Assembly: GCA_900557045.1 (NCBI GenBank)
Contig: USQY01000003.1
Coordinates: 1-56,840, forward strand
Source of the DNA: an uncultured Clostridium sp.
GTDB lineage: Bacteria > Bacillota > Clostridia > TANB77 > CAG-508
Length of the DNA stretch: 56,840 nt
Reading direction: 5' to 3'
A program made the position numbers and the translations under genes. Shown in pieces: positions 1,201 through 50,561 of this stretch (position 1 is its first letter; each line of letters opens with the position of its first letter). The notes beneath the pieces were generated by a model. That model did not search any database. It was not told where the DNA came from and worked only from the letters and a program-made list of their open reading frames with translations.

Positions 1201-2214
1201 TTAATATAAATAATTTTGTGGATTATGCGCTGTTCCATTTATTCTTACCTCTAAGTGTAAATGATTACCTGTAGAATTTCCTGTGCTTCCTACAGCTGCT
1301 ATAGTTTGCCCTTGTGAAACTGATTGTCCAGCTCCAACATATAACCTACTACAATGTGCATAATATGTTTGAACTCCATTTCCATGAGATACAATCAATA
1401 AATTTCCATAACTATAATGATATCCAGCATATGTAACTGTTCCCCCTGCTGCTGCTTTTATAGGTGTTCCATTCGGACATGCAATATCTAATCCTGTATG
1501 ATAATAAGACCCTCTATTTCCAAATCTACATGATATAGTTCCATTTACAGGTCGTATTAAAGATATGCCTAAATTAACTTTCTGTGTTGTATTACTAACA
1601 TTTTTAGATGACCCTACTGAACCATTACCTGATGATCCATATGTTACTCTTCTAACAACAACTGGTTTTTTTTCATATAATTCAGATACACAAGTTTCTA
1701 CATTTGCAAATTCTACCAAATTAGTATCATATTTTTCAGTAATACTTATTTTATTTATATTATTACTATTTTTTTCTTTTAATTGATTAACTACACTTTC
1801 TGCTTCCTGATAAGTTGATAATTTATATTTTTCTTGTCCATCCAATAAAATAATAAAATATTTATAATATGATACCCCTGTATCTACTATTTTGCTATAT
1901 ATTTCATCATCATTAGTTTGTACATCTCTTTTTAATAAGCATATTTCATATTTAGGCATACTTTCAATTTGAACAAACGCAATATTAGTATCACCATTTC
2001 CATTTGTTATGTACTCATTTATTTTAGATTGTAATTGACCTTTACTATTAACATAACCTAAGAATTCACCATTATAATTAACTGCATAAGTTGGTTTATA
2101 AAATATTAAAATAGTACTTAATACTATAAACATTGCTATGCTTAATAATATAATGATTTTCATCCAATTGCGAAAATGTATTATTCCTTTCTTTACCGTA
2201 CTAATATAAAACAC
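1201..2214 (-). CDS. Membrane-anchored M23 (LytM-type) metallopeptidase
   Basis: N-terminal TM helix. HxxxD motif in YHTGLDIA and HxH motif in GNHLHLEV within a typical C-terminal M23 domain. Confidence 0.85.
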   Translation of the reverse strand: MFYISTVKKGIIHFRNWMKIIILLSIAMFIVLSTILIFYKPTYAVNYNGEFLGYVNSKGQLQSKINEYITNGNGDTNIAFVQIESMPKYEICLLKRDVQTNDDEIYSKIVDTGVSYYKYFIILLDGQEKYKLSTYQEAESVVNQLKEKNSNNINKISITEKYDTNLVEFANVETCVSELYEKKPVVVRRVTYGSSGNGSVGSSKNVSNTTQKVNLGISLIRPVNGTISCRFGNRGSYYHTGLDIACPNGTPIKAAAGGTVTYAGYHYSYGNLLIVSHGNGVQTYYAHCSRLYVGAGQSVSQGQTIAAVGSTGNSTGNHLHLEVRINGTAHNPQNYLY

Positions 2215-2412: not shown

Positions 2413-2655
2413 TTATTGTAACTCATTTTTCACAGTTTGAATTTCAGTAACTGTAGCAGGTTGAGCTGGTTTGTAATACCCTTTAGTTTGAGCTATCTTA
2501 AATAACTCATATTGAAAACTTTCATCATTATTTCTTATTTGTTGAACTGTTTGTCTTAATTGCATATTTTCTGCTTCAGAAATAACACCTTGATATGTTG
2601 TAAGTTCAGCTTTAACACCGTTTAGTATATCATTCACCATTGTTTTTTCATCCAT
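2413..2655 (-). CDS. Spore coat protein, CotF (Coat_F) family
   Basis: 80 aa. ILNGVKAELTTYQGVISEAENMQLRQTVQQI...FQYELFKIAQTKGYY matches the Coat_F helical pattern. Confidence 0.65.
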   Translation of the reverse strand: MDEKTMVNDILNGVKAELTTYQGVISEAENMQLRQTVQQIRNNDESFQYELFKIAQTKGYYKPAQPATVTEIQTVKNELQ

Positions 2656-2678: not shown

Positions 2679-2867
2679 TTAATTATTCAAAAATGTCATT
2701 AATTTTTGTTTAGTATTTAATGCATCTTGTGCAGATTTTGTAAATATTTGTTTTATTTGTGGATCCACTGCTTGTGAAGCATATGTGTTTAATTTTTGAT
2801 ATGATGTTTCATGCGCACCTATCAAATGTCTCAAATTTTGAAGCTCAACTTGTGATAAATTAGTCAT
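2679..2867 (-). CDS. Small helical protein co-oriented with cotF-like gene, likely a spore-coat partner
   Basis: I moved the start to the second ATG (MTNLSQ), which gives a 9-nt spacing from the AAAGGA ribosome-binding site. It lies 23 bp upstream of the CotF-like gene. Family assignment is uncertain. Confidence 0.45.
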   Translation of the reverse strand: MTNLSQVELQNLRHLIGAHETSYQKLNTYASQAVDPQIKQIFTKSAQDALNTKQKLMTFLNN

Positions 2868-2980
2868 TACTATCATTCCTTTCCTTTTTTATTTATATAT
2901 TAATTATTTACTATATTTTAATTTTTATACAAATGTAAACGCAGTTTTTTTATGCTTTTATGCAATATACACATAATGCA

Positions 2981-26187: not shown

Positions 26188-27027
26188 CTACAGCATAATT
26201 ACAGCTGTACATAAACCATACTCACTCTTTTCAACACGATATGAATGAACCTTATCACTATTGCAAACACTACATATCCCACAATCAAAAATATTTTCCT
26301 GTTTTAACCCAACATCACCCAATATTATTCTATTTATAAGCACAGTATCAATTTTCCATTTATTTTTTCCATCCTTAACACCTACATTCTCAATAATCTC
26401 ATCCAGCCTACCTGTATATCCAAAATTTTCTACACACATATCCTTAACATCATCTTCAACCTCAAAATGACACTTTCTAATACTCGGACATATACAACAA
26501 ATAATATCCTGTGGATTACAACCATACTCTACCCTCATCTTATTCACAGCATTAACAGCAATCTTCTGAAAAGTACCTCTCCATCCAGAATGAACATTAG
26601 CAATAACCCTTTTTACAGGATCATAAAAAAGCAACAAAATACAATCAGCATTTGTAGTTGCCAAAATCATACCTTTCTTATCAGTCACCAACCCATCAAC
26701 ATTATCCAAAGCCTTATCATTTATCACAAATTTTTCTGTGCAACCAACCTCAACATCAACTCCCACGCACCTAACATTTCCACTATGTTTCTGCACAGGT
26801 TTAACAACATTTCTATAATCAACTTCCAAACAATCACACAACAACCTATAACAATTTACAGCCTCATCAACTTCATTTTTACCAACACCATATCCACTTG
26901 TTCTATAATTTCCTGGAATCAATCCATAAGCATTATTCACCCCAAGCTCCAACAACTTTCTAAACTGCAAATACTCACAAATTCCCTTCTTAACATGAAT
27001 CACCACATCATTACCCAAATTTTCCAT
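26188..27027 (-). CDS. pgeF: Peptidoglycan editing factor PgeF (YfiH/DUF152 family)
   Basis: QKHSGNV, TNADCILLLFYDP...ANVHSGWRGT, CPSIRKCHFEV, and CSVCNSDKVHSYR. Confidence 0.85.
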   Translation of the reverse strand: MENLGNDVVIHVKKGICEYLQFRKLLELGVNNAYGLIPGNYRTSGYGVGKNEVDEAVNCYRLLCDCLEVDYRNVVKPVQKHSGNVRCVGVDVEVGCTEKFVINDKALDNVDGLVTDKKGMILATTNADCILLLFYDPVKRVIANVHSGWRGTFQKIAVNAVNKMRVEYGCNPQDIICCICPSIRKCHFEVEDDVKDMCVENFGYTGRLDEIIENVGVKDGKNKWKIDTVLINRIILGDVGLKQENIFDCGICSVCNSDKVHSYRVEKSEYGLCTAVIML

Positions 27028-31731: not shown

Positions 31732-32403
31732 ATGAAAAGGCGGTTAAAAGCTATTTCAACAGCATTATTAGGCAATCAAAATGTTCCAGTCTGGTTTTTA
31801 AATGGTGGGTATGAGATTCCTAAATTTTTAAATATTGTTAATACTACTGAATGCATTCAAATTCCTATACAAAAGCCTCATTTTTATACCAAATCGCAAA
31901 TAATATCTAGTCAAGGTTGTAAACCATTTGTAGAAGTACTTCAAAAATATAATATTTGGTTATCCAAATTTGTAGACGAAGTATTATCTTCTTCAGATAA
32001 CACCTGCACATTTTGCAATTCAAAACTTGATTTTTTAAATCCAGGAATGTCTGCATTTAGATTATACGATTCAAATTTGGATTATTTGCAAGTTCAAGTT
32101 ACAAGAGTTCAGCAAAACCCTGAATTTTTTCAACTAGATATTTACTATGATGACTCTAACATTCCCAGCTTAATTGTGCTATGTGATATTCATCACCCTA
32201 GACAAACTATACTAGACATAGTTTTTAGAAAAAACAATCATAAAGAAACTTTTTCTCAGGCTACTGAAGTAGCTCGGCACATAAGCTCATTATTTAGAGC
32301 TTTACTAATTTATCTTCGTCCCTGGGATTACACATCAAAAATATGCACTGTATTCCCATTTGATTCGGATTGTGCAGATTTTCCGAAATTACCAGAAGAT
32401 TAA
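31732..32403 (+). CDS. Hypothetical protein (orphan, Cys-containing)
   Basis: 223 aa with a strong AAGGAGG ribosome-binding site. No family recognised. Confidence 0.55.
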   Translation: MKRRLKAISTALLGNQNVPVWFLNGGYEIPKFLNIVNTTECIQIPIQKPHFYTKSQIISSQGCKPFVEVLQKYNIWLSKFVDEVLSSSDNTCTFCNSKLDFLNPGMSAFRLYDSNLDYLQVQVTRVQQNPEFFQLDIYYDDSNIPSLIVLCDIHHPRQTILDIVFRKNNHKETFSQATEVARHISSLFRALLIYLRPWDYTSKICTVFPFDSDCADFPKLPED

Positions 32404-32411
32404 AAAATAAT

Positions 32412-32446
32412 AAAAGACTGGAATTCCAGTCTTTTATTATTTTTTA
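32412..32446. terminator. Bidirectional terminator
   Basis: The sequence AAAAGACTGGaattCCAGTCTTTT forms a hairpin and is followed by a T-run. Confidence 0.8.
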
Positions 32447-32447
32447 T

Positions 32448-32941
32448 TTACATTATAATTTCAATTTCATTAACACCACTATTACCTTCTAACCTAACTT
32501 TTTTATCTTTTAGTTCATTTCCATTCAATATAATCTTATTTATGCCACTTGATTTTCCATTTGCATTATTTATTTTTATATTATAAATACTGTTTTCAAA
32601 CTTATATTTAATACTATATTCTTTCCATTCATTTGAAATTGATGGATTAAAACTAATATAACCATTTTCAATATTTAATCCTAAAATATATTTAATTCCT
32701 GCAATATACATCCAACTACTTGAGCCTGTATACCAAGTCCATCCTCCTCTTCCTGCTAGGTTACCGTACACCATATACATCTGCTGGAATTATATAAGGT
32801 TCTACTTTATATTTCATTGATGAAGCTTTGGTTCTTGAATGTTCTATTGGATTTATCATTTTGAAAAATTCAACTGCTTTATTTCCAAAGCCAAGCATTG
32901 CTTCTGCAATTATTACCCAGATGGCAGCATGTGTGTATTGC
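32448..32941 (-). pseudogene. Detached 3' fragment of the glucan-synthase-like gene (GH94 C-terminus), frameshifted
   Basis: From the repeat core, the minus strand reads QYTHAAIWVIIAEAMLGFGNKAVEFFKMINPIEH...KYKVEPYIIPADVYGVR and then a stop at 32761-32763. The sequence continues in another frame as (M)VYGNLAGRGGWTWYTGSSSWMY...EIEIIM (ORF 32448..32780). Confidence 0.85.
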
Positions 32942-32987
32942 AGTTAGTGCCATTTTTTATATTCTCTCTTTTAGTCACAAATTCTTG

Positions 32988-34625
32988 CTATACAGCCTTT
33001 CTCTCATATTCTTTTTTAGCACATATAAATTTTTCTAAATTATCATTTAATTCTTGTAGTGGTTTAAAGTTGAAATAAATGTCAACTTGTTTATCACTAT
33101 GAATTTCAATTCTTTCTATAAATTCTCTAATTATTTCTTTATTTGGTTTTTCCATATTCAAAAACTCATCAACCAAACTATTTAACTTTTCATCTTTATC
33201 TATTTGCTTATCTTCTCCATTAAGCTCTTTTTCAAGTTCTTTAATTCTTTTTTGATAGTCTTCAATATCATTCTTAATTTTTTTCGCATTTTCAATATAG
33301 TTTTCGACTGTAATGATTTCTGCAAGTCTATCTTCATATAATAGTTCTAATTTTCTTGTTTCTTTTTTTATTTGAGTTTTATAATTCTCAATTTTATTTT
33401 CTAAATCCAATTTCTTATCTTCCTTTGATTTAGACTTTTTTGCAATTTCTTCAAGTTTTTTCTTATTTGAATACTCTTTGCAAATTTCTCTTAAAACTCC
33501 TATCATACTTTCTTCAAAAACTTGATAATTAAAGTTATGTGGAGAACATACATCAAATTTTCCATATCTTCCATATCTTTGACATCTGCCATATATATTA
33601 CCATTTTTATCGGGACTTCTTATTCCTATATATCCTTTACAATCATAGCATTTTAATAGTCCTTTAAATAAATAATCGTTTACATCATTCCTTGAGCCTT
33701 TTGTAGCTTCAATTATTTTTCTTGCTCTTTGATAATCCTCTTGTGATACTATTGCTTCGTGCATGTTAGGAACTCTTATCCAATCTTCTTCTGGAACATC
33801 TACAAATTTATTAGATTTAAAGCTAATCTTTTTTCGTTTACCTTGTATAACTGTTCCAGTATATACCTCATTTGAAAGAATAAATCTAACTGTAGATTGA
33901 GCCCATAAGCCATAAGTTATTGATTTTGTTCCTCTATTTCTTTTATTGTAATCTGATGGAATTGGTATTTTTTGTTCTGACAAATAATCTGCTATTTGCA
34001 TTGTTCCATATCCTACAAGAAACATTCTAAAAATAGTTTTAACAACTTCTGCTGCTTCTTCATCTTTTATTAAATGATATTTATTCTCTGGATCTTTCTT
34101 GTATCCATAAGGTGCAGTTCCTAAATATTCTCCCTGCTTTCTTTTTGATTGTAATACACTATTTATCTTTTTAGATGTGTCTTTTGCATACATTTCATTT
34201 AATATAGATTTGAAAGGTGCAATATCATTGTTTGCAGAATCTAGTCCTGTATCTATATTGTCTAAAATAGCAATATATCTTACATTATGCTCTGGAAAAT
34301 AAGTTTCTGTATAATATCCAGATTGCACATAGTTTCTTCCAAGTCTTGATAAATCTTTTGTAATAACCATATTTATTTTGCCTTGTTCAATGTCTTCTAT
34401 CATTTTATTAAATGCTGGTCTATCAAAACTTGTACCACTTACACCATCATCAACATACTCTGCTATAAAATTAAGCTTATTTTCTTTAATATATTGCATA
34501 AGTAATGTTCTTTGGTTTTGAATACTCTCGCTTTCTGAATATTTTTCCTTTTCTTCGTCTTCTTTTGAAAGTCTTATATATATGCCTACTTTATAATCAA
34601 TATTATTCATTATATTAAAGCTCAT
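32988..34625 (-). CDS. Large serine recombinase (TnpX/SpoIVCA class)
   Basis: The resolvase catalytic domain shows VGIYIRLSKED...SIQNQ...YVDDGVSG....RP.F..M...I....I..VI.KDLSRLGRN. It is followed by a recombinase domain, a zinc-ribbon (CYDC...C..RYG...C) and a coiled-coil tail. The stop lies 47 bp from the left repeat. Confidence 0.9.
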   Translation of the reverse strand: MSFNIMNNIDYKVGIYIRLSKEDEEKEKYSESESIQNQRTLLMQYIKENKLNFIAEYVDDGVSGTSFDRPAFNKMIEDIEQGKINMVITKDLSRLGRNYVQSGYYTETYFPEHNVRYIAILDNIDTGLDSANNDIAPFKSILNEMYAKDTSKKINSVLQSKRKQGEYLGTAPYGYKKDPENKYHLIKDEEAAEVVKTIFRMFLVGYGTMQIADYLSEQKIPIPSDYNKRNRGTKSITYGLWAQSTVRFILSNEVYTGTVIQGKRKKISFKSNKFVDVPEEDWIRVPNMHEAIVSQEDYQRARKIIEATKGSRNDVNDYLFKGLLKCYDCKGYIGIRSPDKNGNIYGRCQRYGRYGKFDVCSPHNFNYQVFEESMIGVLREICKEYSNKKKLEEIAKKSKSKEDKKLDLENKIENYKTQIKKETRKLELLYEDRLAEIITVENYIENAKKIKNDIEDYQKRIKELEKELNGEDKQIDKDEKLNSLVDEFLNMEKPNKEIIREFIERIEIHSDKQVDIYFNFKPLQELNDNLEKFICAKKEYERKAV

Positions 34626-34648
34626 TTTTCCTCCTTCCTGCTAAAAAT

Positions 34649-34701
34649 AATGAGATAATATTGATACTCTTCTGACCAGAATTATATCATATTATCTCAT
34701 T
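34649..34701 (-). promoter_or_regulatory. 13-bp perfect inverted repeat (terminator/attenuator-like) directly upstream of the recombinase RBS
   Basis: Arms AATGAGATAATAT and ATATTATCTCATT are separated by 27 nt. On the minus strand the hairpin is followed by ATTTTTAG and then GGAAGGAGG-ATG of the recombinase. Confidence 0.5.
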
Positions 34702-34741
34702 TATTGCTATCTATTTATTATAAATTTTTAATTGGATTTTA

Positions 34742-34885
34742 TTAACTTTTTAAGCAATAATTTCCAAATGCTCTTTCAACTATTCTTTCAAGTGTTTCTC
34801 CATTATTATTAAATATAATGTTAAATCTAAATTCATTTTTCTTTTTATATTTTTTCTTTTTAACATCCTGTTTTACTTCAGCCAT
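34742..34885 (-). CDS. Small basic protein, TnpW-like (possible directionality factor)
   Basis: 47 aa, too short for the ORF track: MAEVKQDVKKKKYKKKNEFRFNIIFNNNGETLERIVERAFGNYCLKS. An AAGGAGGG ribosome-binding site lies 6 nt upstream. The FNIIF...ETLERIV pattern resembles TnpW as I remember it (V.V.FS...ET.EDKI). Confidence 0.4.
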   Translation of the reverse strand: MAEVKQDVKKKKYKKKNEFRFNIIFNNNGETLERIVERAFGNYCLKS

Positions 34886-34943
34886 ATCTAATCCCTCCTT
34901 ACTTTATTTTTTCCACATTTTGCTATTTTATACAATAATTCAT

Positions 34944-35237
34944 CTAATACACTCTTGAACTTCTTATGCTACTTGCTTGTACCACATTTCTCACAATTTT
35001 AGGTACATCAAATGTAACATTAACATCTTTTTTCACGACTAAATTACTAGAATTATTTGCATAATCATATATAGATCTATTCCAATTTGCGAAATCAACA
35101 TCCGATATTTCAGTTTTAGTTGATAAAACCTTATCATCTTTATCTATTCGTGCAAGTAAATTATAATATTCTTCTCTATCTTCTTTTTCTTTTGCATTTC
35201 TAACATAACTTTTGCTATATTCTTCACTACTATGAAC
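34944..35237 (-). pseudogene. Start-less 97-codon gene remnant
   Basis: The frame opens right after a TAA and has no ATG, GTG or TTG near its 5' end. It reads VHSSEEYSKSYVRNAKEKEDREEYYNLLARIDKDDK...VVQASSIRSSRVY-stop. It abuts the intron fragment. Confidence 0.45.
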
Positions 35238-35244
35238 TTATCCG

Positions 35245-35620
35245 ACTGCCTAATATTCTTTTGATATTCTCCGTTTTATTGTTGTTTATCATACTTGTAT
35301 TGCTACAAGAAACATTAGGCTCTCCCCAGTTGACTAAGTAATCACTATGTAAAGCATGATTGGTTCTAATGACCCCGTAAAAGTTTGAGTATTCTCACCA
35401 TAACGATTACTCAAATATTGCATTCCGCAGTAATTAATACGTCTGCCTTTTAATTGGTAACATTTCGGGGCTTAATCGCCTTTTAACCCTACTTTCTCGC
35501 TGTTTACGCTTTACTCATAATATTACTATTACAAGCACAAAACTCGCTACTGGTGGTTGGTTAAACCTTAGCCAGACGGGATTTCCACCCGCTAGATTAC
35601 TTGCCCTTTTCTGGGCGCAC
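35245..35620 (-). ncRNA. Group II intron 5' fragment (domain I region), with no domain V/VI or reverse transcriptase
   Basis: The minus strand starts GTGCGCCCAGAAAAGGG at 35620, compared with GUGCGCCCAGAUAGGGUG in Ll.LtrB. It also contains ...CTTAGTCAACTGGGGAGAGCCTAA, resembling the Ll.LtrB segment ACUAACUGGGGAUACCCUAA. I found no GAGCCGUAU-type domain V downstream. Confidence 0.65.
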
Positions 35621-35702
35621 AATTACTATTTTTCTTTATCCAACTTGTACGGAATATTACAAATTTGTTAACAACACCAAAATCTTGTAAACAACTTGAT
35701 AT

Positions 35703-36281
35703 TTATTTATCAAGCATTTGCTCATGATGACCATAGCATATCTTTGATATATTATGACTTAATATACTTTTCCAACTATTATTTATTTTATCATCATTAA
35801 ATGCTGATGCTGAGTTTAAATCATATAAGTCTCCAACTATTGCAATACCATCATCTAATATTAAAGAAATACTATCATCACTGTGTCCTGGAGTATATAT
35901 TATTTCTCCATCTATTCCTAAATCACTTAAAAATTTTCTGCTTTCCTCACATGAAATTATCAATGGTTCTGTATTTATAGGAGTAAATTTTGACTTTTTA
36001 TCTTTTTCAAATATTTTATCTGAACAATGAAGATAATCTTTTTGAATATCTATAACTAATAATTTTGCATTCATATTATCAATTATCTCTTGTGCTATTC
36101 CCATATGATCAGGATGATAATGAGTTATTAAAAGATAATCTATTTTTGTTATGTCTAATTCTTTTATTTTTTTATAACAAGCTTGTAATGTTCCAGCCCA
36201 ATCTGTATCCACTAATATACTTCCATTTTTCCCCTCTACATAATAGCAGTTTGTATTTCCGTACTTCAAAAGCTTTATCAT
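35703..36281 (-). CDS. MBL-fold metallo-hydrolase
   Basis: The HxHxDH motif is THYHPDHMG. Downstream are GHSDDS and a C-terminal GHHE. Confidence 0.8.
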   Translation of the reverse strand: MIKLLKYGNTNCYYVEGKNGSILVDTDWAGTLQACYKKIKELDITKIDYLLITHYHPDHMGIAQEIIDNMNAKLLVIDIQKDYLHCSDKIFEKDKKSKFTPINTEPLIISCEESRKFLSDLGIDGEIIYTPGHSDDSISLILDDGIAIVGDLYDLNSASAFNDDKINNSWKSILSHNISKICYGHHEQMLDK

Positions 36282-36304
36282 CTTCTTCTCCTTTTATTTA
36301 CATC

Positions 36305-36673
36305 TTATATATCATATAACAAATATGTGTTACACATACTATATTTTTTTATTAATTCACTTTCTTTTTTTGAAAGCTCTTTATCAGAAAAATTAGCAAC
36401 TAATGAACATAAATAAATATACTTTTGGCTATATCTTTGCGAAAAATTTTCTTTTCCATATTTTCCTTGTATTGTATCAAATTTTAATTGAATTTGCCTA
36501 GTTGTTTCACAATTGATAAAATCTGAAATCTCGTCCAAATCTTTTTTGCTTGTATTATCAATTATTGATTTAGATGTATTAATTACTACATATAACCACT
36601 CTTCCAAATCTGTTAGCTGTTTGGGTTTGCTCTTTAGTTTTGATTTTATTTTTAAATAAATTTCATCTTCCAT
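36305..36673 (-). CDS. Hypothetical protein
   Basis: 122-aa ORF lying 23 bp upstream of the MBL gene. No family recognised. Confidence 0.5.
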   Translation of the reverse strand: MEDEIYLKIKSKLKSKPKQLTDLEEWLYVVINTSKSIIDNTSKKDLDEISDFINCETTRQIQLKFDTIQGKYGKENFSQRYSQKYIYLCSLVANFSDKELSKKESELIKKYSMCNTYLLYDI

Positions 36674-36815
36674 AAATTCATTCCTTCATTTTATAAATAT
36701 TACATTTATTTGTTCAAGACTTGTTCGCAATATTACAATATTGTTAACATCTTTATTTCTCTATAATAATATCACAAAAATGAATGAATTTCAATTTCAC
36801 TCGCCTATTTTATGA

Positions 36816-37073
36816 TTACATTATTATAAACTTTTTTACTAGCTTTTGCATACATTTATTGCACACATGTTTATTATTGTGGTCTATTAAATCCTTTGTA
36901 CTAGAACAAAAAATACATTTATGACTATCCTTTACTAAACTTATTACATCATTTTCAACATAAATATCCATTCTGTCATTAGTTTTAATCTCAAACCTTT
37001 CCCTTATTTCCTTTGGAATGACTATTCTTCCCAATTCATCAACTTTTCTACTCATTCCTGTATCTTTCTTCAT
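36816..37073 (-). CDS. AbrB/SpoVT-type DNA-binding protein with a C-terminal Cys4 zinc-ribbon
   Basis: MKKDTGMSRKVDELGRIVIPKEIRERF is a swapped-hairpin motif. The C-terminus has CIFC...CNKC. I moved the start to the ATG 5 nt after a GGAGG ribosome-binding site. Confidence 0.75.
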   Translation of the reverse strand: MKKDTGMSRKVDELGRIVIPKEIRERFEIKTNDRMDIYVENDVISLVKDSHKCIFCSSTKDLIDHNNKHVCNKCMQKLVKKFIIM

Positions 37074-37181
37074 AATACTCCTCCAAATTATATTTTTATA
37101 TCTTTTAGCAGTCTGTCCGCTAAAAGATAACATAATAAATATTATAAAATCAATACATAATAATAGTATTGAGGGTAGATT

Positions 37182-37430
37182 ATGAAAAAATTTGATAGAA
37201 AAAGTAATGCATACGGTAAAATAATTGAAAAATGTAGAAAAGGCAAAAACATGTCTAGAGCAGATGTTTCAAGAGAGTTAGATTTAATAGATATTCCTAT
37301 TAATCCAGATGAATTATATAGAATTGAAAGACAAAATATGATTTTAAAAGATTATGAACTAATTGCCATTTGCATGATTTTAGATATTGATTATAATGAT
37401 TTAATAAAAATAATTAAGAAGAAAAAATAA
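37182..37430 (+). CDS. XRE-family helix-turn-helix regulator
   Basis: 82 aa. GKIIEKCRKGKNMSRADVSRELD fits an HTH. It is divergent from the AbrB-like gene. Confidence 0.65.
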   Translation: MKKFDRKSNAYGKIIEKCRKGKNMSRADVSRELDLIDIPINPDELYRIERQNMILKDYELIAICMILDIDYNDLIKIIKKKK

Positions 37431-37457
37431 TATAGATAGAGCCACTTATTTGTAGCC

Positions 37458-38756
37458 CTATCTTATTTTATTCTTGTTCTTATTTTTAACAGTTTCTTTT
37501 TCACTTCTTTCTTTATTATCTTGAAATCTCTTTTGTATTATCCAGTCCTCTTTTTCTCCTTTTTCAACTTTACTAATTATTCTTCTGCAAGTTTGTATTT
37601 TCTTATTTATTCTTTCAATATCTTCATTTAAGATATTAATTCTTGCCTTCAAAATCGTTTTATCTGCTGCGTTATCTGTTTTATTATATAATTTCATATA
37701 TATTTCTTTTTGAGCCTTTAAAGGAGAAACTTCTTCTAAATATTGAGTTCTTAAATTTTGAGCATCTTCTATTGATTTCAAATCTTTGCTACTAATCAAA
37801 CTAAGTTCATCACATAGCTTACTAAATTTATCTATTTCTTTATAATATTCTGGTGTTCTTTCAACATAGTGTATTTTAGGTGGTAACTTTCCTAAAACAT
37901 ATAAAAAATGCACATACCACCTATAAAAATGAGAGTGTTCCAATAAAAAAGGATCTATTTTTACACCTTCATATATTTTAACTTTATATACTTTATCTTC
38001 TTTGAATTGATAATTTTTGTAATAGATTCTATTCTTTATATTTTCAAAAGTATAGTCCTCTCCAAAAGCTCTTGCTAGCCTTATATTCCTATTATAATAT
38101 GGAGTTGATATAGAAATTGAATCTCCAGACTTTTTTATATAATAACCTTTGTATGCTAAAAAATCTGCAAATTCCTGATATTTTCTTGCCTCTTTTATTG
38201 CTTCGTCAATATCATTCTTTATAAGTTCCATTTTACCACTATTGCGATTATAATTTTTAATTCTACTTCTTGCTATATCTTTTTCTTTATTCGCCTTATC
38301 AGTTTCTATTACTGATAGTCTATATTTTCTACATAATTCATCATTCGTTTTTCTAACTAATGCTAATTCAACATTTGAATTGTGATATTTACTTCCATCA
38401 ACAAATGAAACCGAATTTAAAATAATATGGTTATCAACATTGTCTTTATCAGTATGTGTGCAAACTAATACTTGATATTTATCTCCCCATAAACTTTCAG
38501 CAAGTTCCATGCCTATATCATTACATTGTCTAGCTGATACTTCTTTTCCATTAAATGATTGTATAAAATGATAACCTAATCTTCCACCTTCCTTATGAAA
38601 ATTTTTCTTTGTTAGCATCATTTGAGTATAAGCATTTTCTGGTAAACAATTTAATCCAGATATTAAAATTCCGTGTTCAGTTTTTTCTCCGTTTTTAACA
38701 TAATTTATTGCTGCCTCTAAATTCTTTTTTATAACTTTATATTTAGTAATTGCCAT
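37458..38756 (-). CDS. Relaxase/mobilisation nuclease (MobA/VirD2 family)
   Basis: YHFIQSF and the histidine triad HTDKDNVDNHIILN lie in the N-terminal ~130 aa. A coiled-coil C-terminus follows. The GGAGGTG ribosome-binding site overlaps the end of the mobC-like frame. Confidence 0.85.
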   Translation of the reverse strand: MAITKYKVIKKNLEAAINYVKNGEKTEHGILISGLNCLPENAYTQMMLTKKNFHKEGGRLGYHFIQSFNGKEVSARQCNDIGMELAESLWGDKYQVLVCTHTDKDNVDNHIILNSVSFVDGSKYHNSNVELALVRKTNDELCRKYRLSVIETDKANKEKDIARSRIKNYNRNSGKMELIKNDIDEAIKEARKYQEFADFLAYKGYYIKKSGDSISISTPYYNRNIRLARAFGEDYTFENIKNRIYYKNYQFKEDKVYKVKIYEGVKIDPFLLEHSHFYRWYVHFLYVLGKLPPKIHYVERTPEYYKEIDKFSKLCDELSLISSKDLKSIEDAQNLRTQYLEEVSPLKAQKEIYMKLYNKTDNAADKTILKARINILNEDIERINKKIQTCRRIISKVEKGEKEDWIIQKRFQDNKERSEKETVKNKNKNKIR

Positions 38757-38767
38757 AAGCCACCTCC

Positions 38768-39094
38768 TTATTTTTGTCTTGAATATACTTCCTTTTCAAA
38801 CCTTAAAATAAAATCTGACAATTCTTTTGAAATATAACTATAATCATCATGTGATGTGCTATATCTTGAATTTGCAATTCTTGCAATCTGATTTATATTA
38901 TTTGCTATTCCATATATCTCTTTTTGAAAAAATTTTATTTCTTCAGTTGGTTGTGCTTTTATTCTATAACCTTTAATCGTACTTCTAATAAATTCAGATT
39001 CAGTTAGTCCTGCCTCTTTTGATTTTTTCTTTAATAATTCATCTTCTTTTGCATCTATCCATATTTGTTTGCATATATTTGACCTAAAATTGTT
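38768..39094 (-). pseudogene. MobC-like ribbon-helix-helix relaxosome protein lacking a canonical start
   Basis: The open frame reads ...CKQIWIDAKEDELLKKKSKEAGLTESEFIRSTIKGYRIKAQP...IYGIANNINQIARIAN... and ends in TAA 11 nt before the relaxase ATG. There is no ATG, GTG or TTG anywhere near its 5' end, and an in-frame TAA lies at 39095-39097. Confidence 0.6.
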
Positions 39095-39252
39095 TTATTT
39101 CTAATAACAAATATACCTTTCTTTGTTACTATAATATAATTATAGTAAGTCATTTTACTTCTTCCTTTTATTAAAATATTCTTGTAAATTACAAGTTCAT
39201 TTTTGAATAGATTTTTAAATTCTTCTGTTACTTTTAATTCATTATTTCTCAT
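39055..39252 (-). pseudogene. NERD-domain-like fragment (65 codons)
   Basis: YNYIIVTKKGIFVIRNKTILGQIYANKYG resembles the NERD core (DH..I...GIFVIE.K...G.IYG) but stops abruptly. It overlaps the 5' end of the mobC-like frame. Confidence 0.4.
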
Positions 39253-39333
39253 TTTTATTTGCTCCTTTCAAACTATTTTTTATTTTAAAAGGAGAAGAAA
39301 CTTTTACATTTCTTCTCCACTATTTGTATTTAC

Positions 39334-48500: not shown

Positions 48501-50561
48501 TACCACATTTAAATTTTTATCTATTTCGGGTTTATTTAATATATGTGCCATAGCCCCAATTAATTCTAGACCAGAATTTAATACCAAGTCAGTATCTGAA
48601 TCCAATGTTATTATATATTTCACAATCGTAGCCATATTTTGTTTACTAAAATTACACAATATAACCCCTTCTTCAATTGTAGATTCTATGGAATTACATA
48701 GAAATGGATTTTTTATATTTCCAAGTAAATACTCGTTAAACTGATTTATTAAACCTCTTTTTCTTTCCCAACCTAAATAGCATTCCTCACCATCATTCCA
48801 TGTTCTTTTTCTATATATAAAATTAAATTTATTTAATTTTTGTGGATTTTCATTAGGATATTTTTGGTTTAATTTTTCTATTTCTTCTAATCCTGTTTTT
48901 ACTATTTCATCATCAAATTTTTCTGTTTGCTTATCACTGCTTGAGCAATCTCCTAATAAAGTAAAATATAAATTTTCGCTTTTATTTGCTATATAATACA
49001 CTTCTAATTGTGCAAATAATTCCTTCACCTTTTCCTTGTTCTTTACTATTGTTGGTATAATTACCATGGTTGAACTTTCTTCTGGAACTCCATTTTTGTA
49101 ATCTAATTTTGGTGTCATTTTTGGCTTTATTATTTTACTTAAAACATATTGTATTATTTGAGTTACTATAGTATGTGCTGGCACAAATGTTAGAATAAAT
49201 ATAATTATAGCTATTGCAAAATTTTTGTAATTGTTATACACATACAATCCACATAATAAACTTATCAAAATAGATGATATTATAACTCCTGAAACATATA
49301 TTTTCATTTTTGTTTTAGGAGAAGTATTTTTTATTTTTTTATTACATAACTCTGATAATAATAATGTTTTTCCATCTGATATTAAATAATATCCTATATG
49401 AGATTTTTTTATTTCTGTACTATTCTTATTAGCTTTAGCCAATTCCAAGCATTTTTTTGCTATATATATTTCTGATATTTTTGTTTTTTTAGCAATTTTC
49501 TCAATAGCCTGTCTATAATAAGCTCTTGTTTTATAATCCATTTTTCCATATACATTAGCCGGATCTTTCTTTAATATTTCTTCAACACCGTTTATTTCTT
49601 CAAATATCTGTAAAAAATTAACTCTAATAATAGTGTTTATACTAGTTATAGAATTTCCCATTGACACTTTTTTTAATGCAATATCAAAATGCTCTTTTTG
49701 AATAATTTCATCAATTGTTAATCCCATTTTATCAACTTGTTCCTCCAAAATTGATAAAAAACTATATGCTTGTTTTCCATATTGTTTCAATCTATATGAC
49801 ATATACTCTATAAATGGACATTTCATTTCTCCATTTACTTTTCCCCTTGTTGTTTCCCTTGTATTTATAATTTTTTTAGAATATTTACATTTATTATTAA
49901 TATATTCATTTATATTGGGTACATTTTTAAATTTTGGATTTTCCTTTTTTTCAACTAATCTCTCTATAATGTTTTCAACTTTATATTTCTGTAATTGTGA
50001 AGAATAAATTTTATCACAAATCATCCTAATATTCTCAATTAGAGCAATTTGTAAAAATGTACCTATATTCCATATTTCTTCCATACCTAAACTTTTCTTA
50101 CTTTGATAAGCCTGTAATAAATTGCTTAAATTGTCTCTATCAATTACAGCATCTGTATATGCTACAATCTCACTAGCTAATACATAAATTCTTGCAAATC
50201 CTTTATAATTTCCATTTTCTAACCCCACAAAACTCACATACTTTTTTAATGGCATATCTTTTATAATTGTTTTTACAGTTTTTTCTATTATATAATAATT
50301 ATCTAAAATCCATTCTCCTGCAGGATGTATTGGTAATCCTAATTTTAAATGTTCAGTCAATATATTGTACACTTTTGTTATATATTCATAATTTTCTTTT
50401 ACTCTTGGAATTGGATATGTTTTTTTATCTGATTTACTTTTTAAAACATTATCAGATGCAAGTTTTGCCAAATAATTTTCTAACTGCTGTTTATCTAACA
50501 ATACACCTTTTATAGTTAATATTTTGTATCTTTCCAATTTTTCCACCTCTTGCATATACAT
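42543..50561 (-). CDS. Cyclic beta-1,2-glucan synthase-like giant protein (GT84 plus GH94), 3'-truncated by the element
   Basis: HPAGEWILDNYYIIE at the N-terminus, with multiple TM segments. GT84 motifs: ITLDSDTDL, LSHDLLEG, RSHRWIRGDYQ. GH94 motifs: GFRDQLQD, GSGDWNDG, RENGGQYTH. The last 18 codons (ECCCYHHFLANMLEIKLK) are read-through into the element. Confidence 0.85.
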   Translation of the reverse strand: MYMQEVEKLERYKILTIKGVLLDKQQLENYLAKLASDNVLKSKSDKKTYPIPRVKENYEYITKVYNILTEHLKLGLPIHPAGEWILDNYYIIEKTVKTIIKDMPLKKYVSFVGLENGNYKGFARIYVLASEIVAYTDAVIDRDNLSNLLQAYQSKKSLGMEEIWNIGTFLQIALIENIRMICDKIYSSQLQKYKVENIIERLVEKKENPKFKNVPNINEYINNKCKYSKKIINTRETTRGKVNGEMKCPFIEYMSYRLKQYGKQAYSFLSILEEQVDKMGLTIDEIIQKEHFDIALKKVSMGNSITSINTIIRVNFLQIFEEINGVEEILKKDPANVYGKMDYKTRAYYRQAIEKIAKKTKISEIYIAKKCLELAKANKNSTEIKKSHIGYYLISDGKTLLLSELCNKKIKNTSPKTKMKIYVSGVIISSILISLLCGLYVYNNYKNFAIAIIIFILTFVPAHTIVTQIIQYVLSKIIKPKMTPKLDYKNGVPEESSTMVIIPTIVKNKEKVKELFAQLEVYYIANKSENLYFTLLGDCSSSDKQTEKFDDEIVKTGLEEIEKLNQKYPNENPQKLNKFNFIYRKRTWNDGEECYLGWERKRGLINQFNEYLLGNIKNPFLCNSIESTIEEGVILCNFSKQNMATIVKYIITLDSDTDLVLNSGLELIGAMAHILNKPEIDKNLNVVVNGHALLQPRVGIGLLEVRRSIFSKIFAGQGGTDSYVNAIFDVYQDNFGEGIFTGKGIYDLKVFSQVLNNEIPENTVLSHDLLEGCYLRCGMVSDIMLMDGFPTSYLASKKRSHRWIRGDYQILSWLKNKKLNILCKYKIIDNVFRSNLEVSIVLSIIILVLAKVFAKIKIWPIIIFLTISLLIPNIIEIVNKIIFRKEGETRQKTFIKNTTTVKNSLIKVFFAISTLPDKAYMSISAGITSLYRMIISKKHLLEWVTAEEAEKKSKNDLKSYYSNMIPNVVSGIIGILFVILTQTTFEIFGIISLILSTLWLIAPIILCYISKPIKEKNPIELLDKNDKEYILDIAKKTWLFFKEYINEKTNYLPPDNYQEDRKPKVVMRTSSTNIGLGMLAVISSYDLGFEKLDDTIKLLEKMINTVNGLPKWNGHLYNWYNIETLEHLYPRYVSSVDSGNFIGYLYVVYQFLEGVVAENKNYEICKSLSQIILQIIKNTDFSKLFDEKNNLFSIGFDIEENKLTDSYYDLLASEARQASLVAIAKKDIDVKNWYNLSRTLTILNKYKGLISWSGTAFEYLMPNINIPKYPGSLLDESCKFMIMSQKEYAKKLGIPWGISESAFNLKDLNNNYQYKAFGIPWLGLKRGLADEMVVSSYGSILAITEEPKNVINNIKILEKQGMNSKYGLYESIDYTPNRVEKNKKYVPVKTYMAHHQGLILLSINNLFNNNILQKRFMKNPEMQSVNILLEEKMPENVIITKEKKEKVEKIKYNNYDFYSEKTFTKINNDIERFNVISNKNYTIILDEKGNGYSKYKNNLVNRYKQTSDIDQGIYFYLKNIKNKKIWTNIYNGNMDKPDKYTVTFAPDICKYIRIDGNIETNTKITVSPNDSVEIRRLEIKNLGNTDETLEISSIIEPVLSNKEQDYAHPAFNNLFLTYEYIPELNIILVKRKKRSENQKEIFMAVTLCSDEHGDNTNFGSDLEYEISKERLIERNNFGIPKLIEDSKPFSKKIELTTDSIIAMRKTINIKARENTKLDFIMCVSEDKEYVINTIKKYMNFENNKRVFELSRARVEAENRYLNINGKDLDLYQRILTYILENNVTNFSCDSNSKQEDNTNSVNARNLENNGNLENTDNNKIYSINELWKYGISGDVPIIFVKIKNINDISVIEELVKAYEYFKTKNIEIDLVILNEEKGNYNNYVKDAILDTVLNSGLGYMLNTKGGIYVLNGIKNKDIQLITIYSKLVFNAQNGNLNLQLNDVEDDIPKVYIERSNQQLNLLEEPKQENKLLNNNLLYYNEYGGFSADGKEYLLRINKENNTPAPWSNIMANNNFGTLVTETNGGYSWYKNCRLNRISAWSNNQILDVPSEVIYLKDEETKRKWSIGYNPMPDENDYYITYGFGYSKFNHASCGIEQELEVFVPKQDSCKIQILKLKNTTLRKRKIKLVYYLKPVLGEDEIKTNEFLDINFNKNSNTIFAKNITNTDYKNMVFVSSSEQIKSFTGSKKEFFGGGDISNPTGLDLDNFSNKLWSKISNVIVIQFEIQLEALEDKEISIVLGAGESKIECQDLAYKYSNLNNCIHENEIVKKYWADLLNTLQVQTPVESMNLMLNGWIMYQTIVSRLISRTGFYQSGGAYGFRDQLQDSLSAKYLNPEITRNQIIKHSKHQFIEGDVEHWWHDETNRGIRTRFSDDLLWLPYVTADYIEFTGDYSILDVETNYLNGAILPDGIDERYDMYIQSDKKATIYEHCINAIEKSLNFGENGLPKIGSGDWNDGFSTVGNKGKGESVWLGFFLCSVLEKFVKICEYVENNSENLNINEGVNVEKERMNENKNKNKKQNVEAGTEETINDFETKKSEKYKQIIEKLKKTLNKNAWDGRWFKRAFMDNGKVLGSIQNDECKIDSIAQSWSVISNMADNDKKFISMESLENHLVDKENGIIKLLDPPFDKGNLEPGYIKAYIPGTRENGGQYTHECCCYHHFLANMLEIKLK

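Follow-up and report, generated by a model that had tools for sequence, protein, structure and literature searches.

Spore-forming bacteria harbor several genes that are split by an element encoding a large serine recombinase, as in the cases of skin in sigK, SPβ in spsM and gin in gerE; the last of these, a gene-intervening element that is not necessarily a prophage, can use a recombination directionality factor (RDF) of about 42 amino acids, GirX (PMC5595907). Integrative mobilizable elements (IMEs) with site-specific serine recombinases typically integrate inside dispensable genes, and TnpX, the recombinase of the clostridial elements Tn4451/Tn4453, excises without an RDF (PMC5704250). Here we analyze a locus that resembles all of these systems, found in 56,840 nucleotides of DNA (about 26% GC) from an uncultured Clostridium sp. 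(contig USQY01000003.1), the whole of which we refer to as the window. In it, an element of 9,671 bp (counting one copy of its terminal repeat), designated element A, splits a gene for a predicted cyclic-glucan synthase (cgs). A sequence-only reading of the window had raised the possibility that the split gene is rejoined during sporulation in the manner of skin and SPβ, or else is simply dead. We conclude that element A is very probably a site-specific, recently mobile IME of an undescribed family residing in a cgs gene whose GH94 module was already dead, and thus an ordinary insertion and not a sporulation switch.

The host gene and the element are arranged as follows (coordinates are those of the window):

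42613..50561, minus strand: 5′ part of cgs (Pfam domains, PDB 8rf9/8rf0); the called open reading frame (ORF) crosses the repeat and runs into element DNA as far as 42543
42599..42612, minus strand: attL core, GCAATACACACATG, an exact repeat that encodes (G)QYTH, with the likely crossover dinucleotide CA at 42601-42602
32942..42598, minus strand: element A, a putative integrative mobilizable element, missing from empty alleles that read exactly as the joined attB
32928..32941, minus strand: attR core, the second, exact copy of GCAATACACACATG
32448..32927, minus strand: 3′ part of cgs, 160 codons, with an extra base and a premature stop (joined frame, comparison with orthologues)
32402..32445, no strand assigned: bidirectional terminator hairpin at the natural end of cgs, a 20-bp stem followed by a T run

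The 5′ ORF (42543..50561, minus strand) encodes 2,672 amino acids, in which Pfam recognizes a Glycoamylase domain (putative glucoamylase, GH144-like) followed by a GH94 supersandwich domain and a GH94 catalytic domain; a weak match to an MdoH-like glycosyltransferase (GT) covers amino acids 761-993. In the PDB, the protein matches the solved Cgs/NdvB structures 8rf9 and 8rf0, which are cyclic β-1,2-glucan synthases, at E=0. Because of these domains and this match, the interrupted gene, called a polysaccharide synthase in the sequence-only reading, is a predicted Cgs/NdvB homologue, a giant cyclic-glucan synthase. It shares with Cgs/NdvB its length class and its domain order (transmembrane [TM] plus GT84-like region, GH144-like cyclase, GH94 phosphorylase), whereas its host is a Gram-positive gut anaerobe and its last ~105 residues are unreachable through a frameshift described below. 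The GH94 homology of the 5′ ORF stops after ...ENGGQYTH, and 18 codons of foreign element DNA are then read. The gene resumes at 32927, going down on the minus strand, with AAIWVIIAEAM... (AAIWVIIAEAMLGFG...) and ends at 32448, just before the terminator hairpin. Joined across the 14-bp repeat, the two halves make a gene of 8,451 nt that is in frame at the junction. The gene shares an apparent operon with a patatin-like gene.

The 3′ part contains one extra base in GTAC at 32766..32769 (minus strand), which creates a stop at 32761..32763, and the joined frame ends at codon 2710. The window has the codons GGT GTA CGG TAA at a place where YG-x-GNLAGRGGWTWYTGS (YG-x-GNLAGRGGW) is found in orthologues; because the orthologues have exactly one codon at x, the lesion can be assigned to a single extra base (+1) in GTAC. 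Deleting any one base within GTAC yields a protein of 2,813 amino acids. The ORF at 32448..32780 is the out-of-frame +1 tail, the last 110 codons of cgs, and no further lesions are present downstream of the extra base. Sequencing error was rejected as the source of the frameshift, as there is no homopolymer at the site, which reads the same in 17 independent assemblies. Separate translation of the 108-aa tail was also rejected, there being no Shine–Dalgarno (SD) sequence ahead of its ATG.

To place this lesion in the population, the locus was compared across 20 additional metagenome samples of this species, reached through the flanking patatin-like gene and a flanking 223-aa ORF. (The latter, a cysteine-rich ORF at 31732..32403 on the plus strand, converges on the cgs terminator and has no Pfam match; an identical protein occurs in 165 blocks of the assembly collection, and the gene is thus real, though uncharacterized.) The identical extra base was present in all 19 loci (17 samples) that cover the frameshift site, or 18 of 18 when alleles are counted (the window and 17 samples), every empty allele included; seven of them, from six samples without the element, are empty-site loci. 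The sequence-only reading had noted the frameshift as an argument against a switch and had named in advance a real and fixed frameshift as the outcome that would speak against rejoining; this is the outcome obtained. Nor did we find an intact allele: a search of 5.8 billion protein clusters with the repaired C-terminal 563 amino acids returned nothing above 74% identity that spanned the site, and a search of genome contigs with the rejoined C-terminal 563 amino acids returned only orthologues at 59-74% identity from other uncultured Clostridia, the window's species not being among them. The frameshift thus appears to be older than the sampled diversity. Because island-free strains carry the same frameshift, precise excision would restore only a frameshifted pseudogene tail and not a working gene. 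The comparison of alleles with and without the element, which the sequence-only reading had called for, revealed no restored gene, and its alternative that the gene is simply dead gains support, at least for the GH94 module.

How much of the synthase survives is less certain. In the Cgs of Agrobacterium, the GH94 catalytic residue is dispensable, yet large C-terminal truncations are harmful (PMC10901819), and for this reason the residual function of the window's truncated synthase, which the frameshift costs ~105 C-terminal residues, is uncertain. Polymorphism provides a hint. The 7.96-kb 5′ fragment has 46 segregating sites among 13 alleles (one contig, L013/L004/L027, with a "contig_" name, 144 differences and a split SSB gene, was regarded as error-prone and excluded from the counts), and its ratio of nonsynonymous to synonymous polymorphism (pN/pS) is ~0.20. 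Before codon 1700, in the TM, GT84-like and cyclase parts, there are 12 nonsynonymous and 25 synonymous changes, as against 9 and 0, respectively, from codon 1700 onward, in the GH94 part (Fisher p=2.7e-4; p=0.006 with the cut moved to the Pfam GH94 boundary at ~codon 2000), a contrast that comes from 46 linked sites and a cut-point picked after the data had been seen. The pattern is suggestive of a dead phosphorylase module joined to a still-constrained synthase, with only the GH94 module unconstrained; expression of, and constraint on, the N-terminal glycosyltransferase and cyclase part probably persist.

The locus exists in three forms within the one species: with element A (about nine contigs read), empty (about eight) and with a second element, element B (one). 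Element A is 100% identical in five other assemblies over 9,685 bp, and at least 23 contigs, which come from many gut metagenomes, encode its exact 545-aa recombinase, without exception at the window's locus. Element B (L009/L014/L019) is ~15.5 kb in length and occupies the same attB; its recombinase is 76% identical to that of element A, and its left end is closely related. Over 7.96 kb of 5′ fragment, the window and L016, which carry element A, and L015 and L021, which are empty, show no differences at all, and both A and empty alleles are found on each of the two main flanking haplotypes. Meanwhile, copies of element A differ from one another at 0-10 positions per 9.3 kb, whereas the host flank has 20-115 differences per 9 kb. 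Because occupied and empty alleles can share identical flanks and because the element is less diverse than those flanks, its gain or loss appears to be recent, the element having evidently come, gone or spread after the frameshift. An element stably inherited at its site would not be expected to leave A, empty and B forms scattered over haplotypes, as is seen here. Two further variants were noted in these samples: AddB is split into 865 and 249 amino acids in one of them (L025:5621-8967), and a Cu-oxidase_4 gene (window about 26188..27027) encodes 279 or 312 amino acids. An indel of ~198 nt also separates alleles in the flank alignments.

These forms also define the attachment site. The repeat GCAATACACACATG at 42599..42612 and 32928..32941 (minus strand) has no other copy in the window, and the empty alleles, which read ...GGTGGGCAATACACACATGCTGCCATCTGGG..., agree in every letter with the attB that the window predicts. 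The attR core of element B is imperfect (AATCACACTCATG), and it is this imperfection that narrows the crossover to CATG at the right end of the core. The reconstructed attP points to the same place: its best dyad, which matches at 13 of 20 arm positions (a score reached by ~3% of shuffles), is centered on the CA of CATG. We infer that crossover occurs at this CA. The sequence-only reading was thus correct about the anatomy of the locus: a recombinase-bearing element splits the gene, and excision would rejoin its halves, as judged by the repeat, the in-frame junction and the natural empty site.

The same target recurs well beyond this species. Hundreds of full-length proteins are related to the recombinase at 85-100% identity, and all those looked up (97%, 89%, 87% and 86% identity) lie immediately upstream of a GH94 3′ fragment that starts at the QYTH codons. 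The target is shared in eight host contexts, namely the window and seven others with unrelated downstream genes. In two cases an identical recombinase protein (P0168 and P0219) is found in two or three hosts with unrelated flanks (L108-L110; L116-L117), and because of this sharing of identical recombinases between hosts with unrelated flanking genes, very recent interspecies transfer of the islands among gut Clostridia is implied. The islands have a conserved backbone of TnpV-MobC-relaxase ... DUF6076, orf157, orf47/48 and recombinase. Their cargo is variable: AbiE; an ABC ATPase with LytTR; a Schlafen/AlbA_2 ATPase with a helicase; Band-7-domain (PF13421) and zinc-ribbon (DZR) proteins; and arrays of immunity proteins. 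Element B itself carries (L009:18960-20909, L019:11200-20672) a Schlafen/AlbA_2 ATPase with a PADLOC pAgo-associated-like match (E=1.3e-53), together with a series of immunity genes of the SUKH, Imm33, DUF4261 and Tdi1 types. The 3′ fragment stays open for 162-180 codons, from QYTH to the natural stop, in six contexts. In another species with a related element (L111-L113; L111:4560-4720, L113:3640-3660), three assemblies show a separate frameshift in the cgs 5′ part at ~codon 2573, one sample has a second frameshift there and the tail is short; these frameshifts represent independent decay of the GH94 region. Taken as a whole, the islands appear to constitute a horizontally mobile, target-specific family of IMEs. 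What is new is modest: the use of the QYTH codons of GH94 in cgs as an attB for large serine recombinases, and the element family, are previously undescribed.

The contents of element A, whose genes all lie on the minus strand save for one helix-turn-helix gene, fit this assignment:

41734..42390, minus strand: AbiEi-like antitoxin/regulator, cargo (PADLOC AbiEi, E=3.6e-38)
40777..41730, minus strand: AbiEii nucleotidyltransferase toxin, cargo, predicted abortive infection or addiction module (Pfam PF08843; PADLOC AbiEii, E=2e-102)
39334..39708, minus strand: TnpV, a backbone gene of the family, intact (Pfam PF14198, E=4.5e-36; kept in L108, L114 and L116)
38771..39252, minus strand: deletion scar, a NERD remnant abutting a MobC remnant (tblastn with the complete L108 genes)
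37458..38756, minus strand: MobA/VirD2-type (MOBP-like) relaxase, intact, 432 amino acids (Pfam PF03432 full-length; 97% identical to the L108 relaxase)
35362..35585, minus strand: group II intron D1-D4 fragment, a remnant with no reverse-transcriptase ORF (Rfam RF02005, 161.6 bits, E=1.8e-47)
34742..34885, minus strand: 47-aa basic, lysine-rich ORF just upstream of the recombinase gene (conserved in relatives)
34649..34701, minus strand: predicted recombinase promoter region, with an extended −10 inside an inverted repeat (read from the sequence)
32988..34625, minus strand: large serine recombinase, 545 amino acids, intact (Pfam Resolvase, Recombinase, Zn_ribbon_recom and DUF4368)

Also present are genes for a UPF0158 protein, an AbrB/MazE-fold protein, a 122-aa ORF and a metallo-β-lactamase-fold protein. 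The recombinase gene, as had been proposed, is intact and has the full domain set; against NCBIfam, it matched the CcrB and XisF models only far below their cut-offs and belongs to neither. The relaxase has weak MobP matches besides PF03432, and a domain search of the element A ORFs revealed no mating-pore, type IV secretion system (T4SS) or type IV coupling protein domains. That the transfer functions are decayed, as the sequence-only reading held, is true in part. Comparison with the more complete relative L108 reveals that a deletion fused a truncated NERD gene (39055..39252, about 65 amino acids corresponding to residues 1-64 of 163) to a start-less MobC gene (38771..39079, lacking the first four codons and the start) and that orf157, which adjoins the group II intron fragment, is also truncated; the relaxase, TnpV, the 47-aa ORF and the recombinase are intact. 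Contigs L005 and L007 begin 1,091 nt upstream of the recombinase gene, near the intron fragment, which may be a genomic repeat. Element A thus has what appears to be the anatomy of an IME, somewhat eroded.

Three of the properties expected of an IME are found together here: an integration module of the element's own between short repeats with a matching empty attB, a relaxase in the absence of a T4SS, and a target shared across hosts. Like other IMEs of the Firmicutes (for example, those of streptococci in rumA; PMC5704250), element A has a single large serine recombinase encoded at one of its ends, a relaxase (with MobC in its relatives) and no T4SS, short direct repeats at its ends and variable cargo, and it uses one specific site inside a dispensable protein-coding gene that integration disrupts. 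It differs from them in its target, the QYTH codons of the GH94 region of cgs, which is new; in its hosts, which are uncultured, low-GC gut Clostridia; and in its backbone, TnpV-MobC-relaxase ... DUF6076-orf157-orf47-recombinase, of which element A has lost the MobC start. With Tn4451/Tn4453 (TnpX, TnpV, TnpZ; C. perfringens and C. difficile), element A shares a clostridial mobilizable design, TnpV and, as judged by its domain set, a large serine recombinase with a DUF4368 tail. However, its relaxase is of the MobA/VirD2 type (PF03432) and not of the MobV/Pre type represented by TnpZ; it is highly site-specific, whereas Tn4451/Tn4453 are of low specificity; its core GCAATACACACATG contains no GA dinucleotide on either strand; and its 545-aa recombinase, a possible TnpX-type enzyme, is less than 40% identical to any plasmid-borne relative.

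A plausible course of events can be assembled from these observations. The recombinase would recombine an attP whose dyad is centered on CA in ...ACAATACACA-CA-TG... and which mimics the codons of the conserved GH94 motif Q-Y-T-H. Insertion would sever the last 160 codons of cgs. In this species, the GH94 module, a phosphorylase with a role in length control, would already have been inactivated by the one-base insertion 55 codons downstream of attB, and because that frameshift is fixed, insertion of the element would have imposed no further cost on the host gene. The AbiE toxin–antitoxin pair may stabilize the element, which could be mobilized in trans through its relaxase, despite the damaged MobC of the window copy. 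On this account, the element would be mobile, now or very recently, both within the species and between species.

Certain points weigh against this account, in addition to the limits of the polymorphism contrast mentioned above. The start-less MobC and the other deletions make the transfer competence of the element A copy doubtful. No excised circle (attP junction) was seen, although the JGI metagenome contigs that were scanned do not contain the element, a control pattern that also matches attR having given no matches. Finally, homologous recombination between strains, instead of the recombinase, could likewise explain why occupied and empty alleles share identical backgrounds. These points invite the alternative that element A is an immobile relic, incapable of excision or transfer, and that occupied, empty and variant alleles move between strains only by recombination in the homologous flanks, an interpretation with which the truncated NERD and orf157 genes and the group II intron fragment would also agree. 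We consider it unlikely. No lesion or variation is seen in the recombinase, its promoter, the 47-aa ORF, the relaxase or either att site; close relatives with identical recombinases occur in different species, which requires site-specific integration; and there are zero flank differences between occupied and empty alleles.

At the level of sequence motifs, the region upstream of the recombinase gene agrees with a recently mobile IME. An extended −10 sequence, TGATATAAT, at 34681..34689 is bracketed by a perfect 13-bp inverted repeat, AATGAGATAATAT / ATATTATCTCATT, at 34689..34701 and 34649..34661, and the extended −10 and the right arm of the repeat are invariant or nearly so across six family members. 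Such a conserved, σA-type extended −10 together with the repeat suggests a vegetative promoter with a likely operator. Just upstream, a 46-48-aa ORF is present at the same place in all relatives; the 47-aa ORF of element A is 100% identical in L108, though the recombinase there is 96.5% identical. It has no Pfam or NCBIfam match and is a candidate accessory factor or RDF, by inference comparable to the 42-aa GirX of gin.

It could be imagined that the family as a whole reversibly switches cyclic-glucan synthesis on and off in gut Clostridia and that the window's species is a lineage in which the frameshift made the switch moot. In species with intact halves, regulated excision, possibly in response to sporulation or stress, could then restore cgs, as SPβ does spsM. 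The clean 3′ frame in six of the eight contexts, the operator-like repeat and the conserved 47-aa ORF may be cited for this idea, which we nonetheless regard as improbable, as nothing in the analysis argues for such a role.

Less probable still is a switch of the skin, SPβ or gin type in the window itself, in which a domesticated element would be excised in the mother cell under the control of a sporulation sigma factor to rebuild a synthase that the spore requires. The host probably forms spores, as the sequence-only reading had proposed: two ORFs with a Coat F domain lie at 2413..2655 and 2679..2876 (minus strand), and genes for SpoVG and a SpoIVB-type S55 peptidase are found near the locus in longer contigs of the same species. 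(The Coat F ORFs adjoin an M23 peptidase gene at 1201..2214, minus strand.) As in skin, SPβ and gin, an element with an intact large serine recombinase gene that adjoins the junction splits a gene whose halves are in frame, precise excision would join these halves, and the small ORF upstream of the recombinase gene could be an RDF in the manner of GirX. The resemblance goes no further. In those systems excision restores an intact, functional ORF, whereas here the rejoined gene, like the natural empty sites, is frameshifted in every allele, and reconstitution of the gene is in this sense already refuted. Domestication as a gene switch is likewise contradicted by an element that is not fixed in the population but polymorphic, young, scattered over haplotypes and nearly invariant as compared to its flanks and whose family moves between species. 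Neither a σE-type (CATACAnT) nor a σK-type (AC-16/17-CATAnnnTA) match, which had been sought upstream of 34885 or 34625, was found in the 675 nt upstream of the recombinase gene and the 47-aa ORF, though such consensus scans carry little weight either way at 26% GC in an uncultured lineage, and the conserved, putative promoter is instead σA-like. To our knowledge, Cgs has no role in sporulation, and nothing ties it to that process.

Least probable of all is that the frameshift is bypassed, by a programmed +1 shift at GUA-CGG-UAA or because the 108-aa tail serves as a separate subunit, making the unoccupied gene functional and the element a true on/off switch: the 8.1-kb upstream ORF is open in all short-read assemblies, the tail is free of other lesions and CGG just ahead of a stop makes for a rare-codon context, but there is no slippery P-site codon, no upstream SD-like stimulator and no SD before the ATG of the tail, the excess of nonsynonymous changes in the GH94 part is as expected under relaxed constraint, and the second species with an element has independent GH94 frameshifts.

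We therefore favor an ordinary insertion by a site-specific, recently mobile IME. This interpretation removes a tempting but wrong annotation, in that the split gene of the window would be a pseudogenized GH94 module that hosts a mobile island and not a skin-like switch, and it provides a natural example of insertion into a gene with a dispensable enzymatic tail. It should also be useful for the annotation of metagenome-assembled genomes, in which cgs fragments beside recombinase genes recur, and for catalogues of integrases and att sites. More broadly, a sizeable family of islands at the GH94 QYTH site would appear to ferry defense and toxin–antitoxin cargo, including AbiE, Schlafen/pAgo-associated-like and helicase genes and immunity proteins, between uncultured gut Clostridia.

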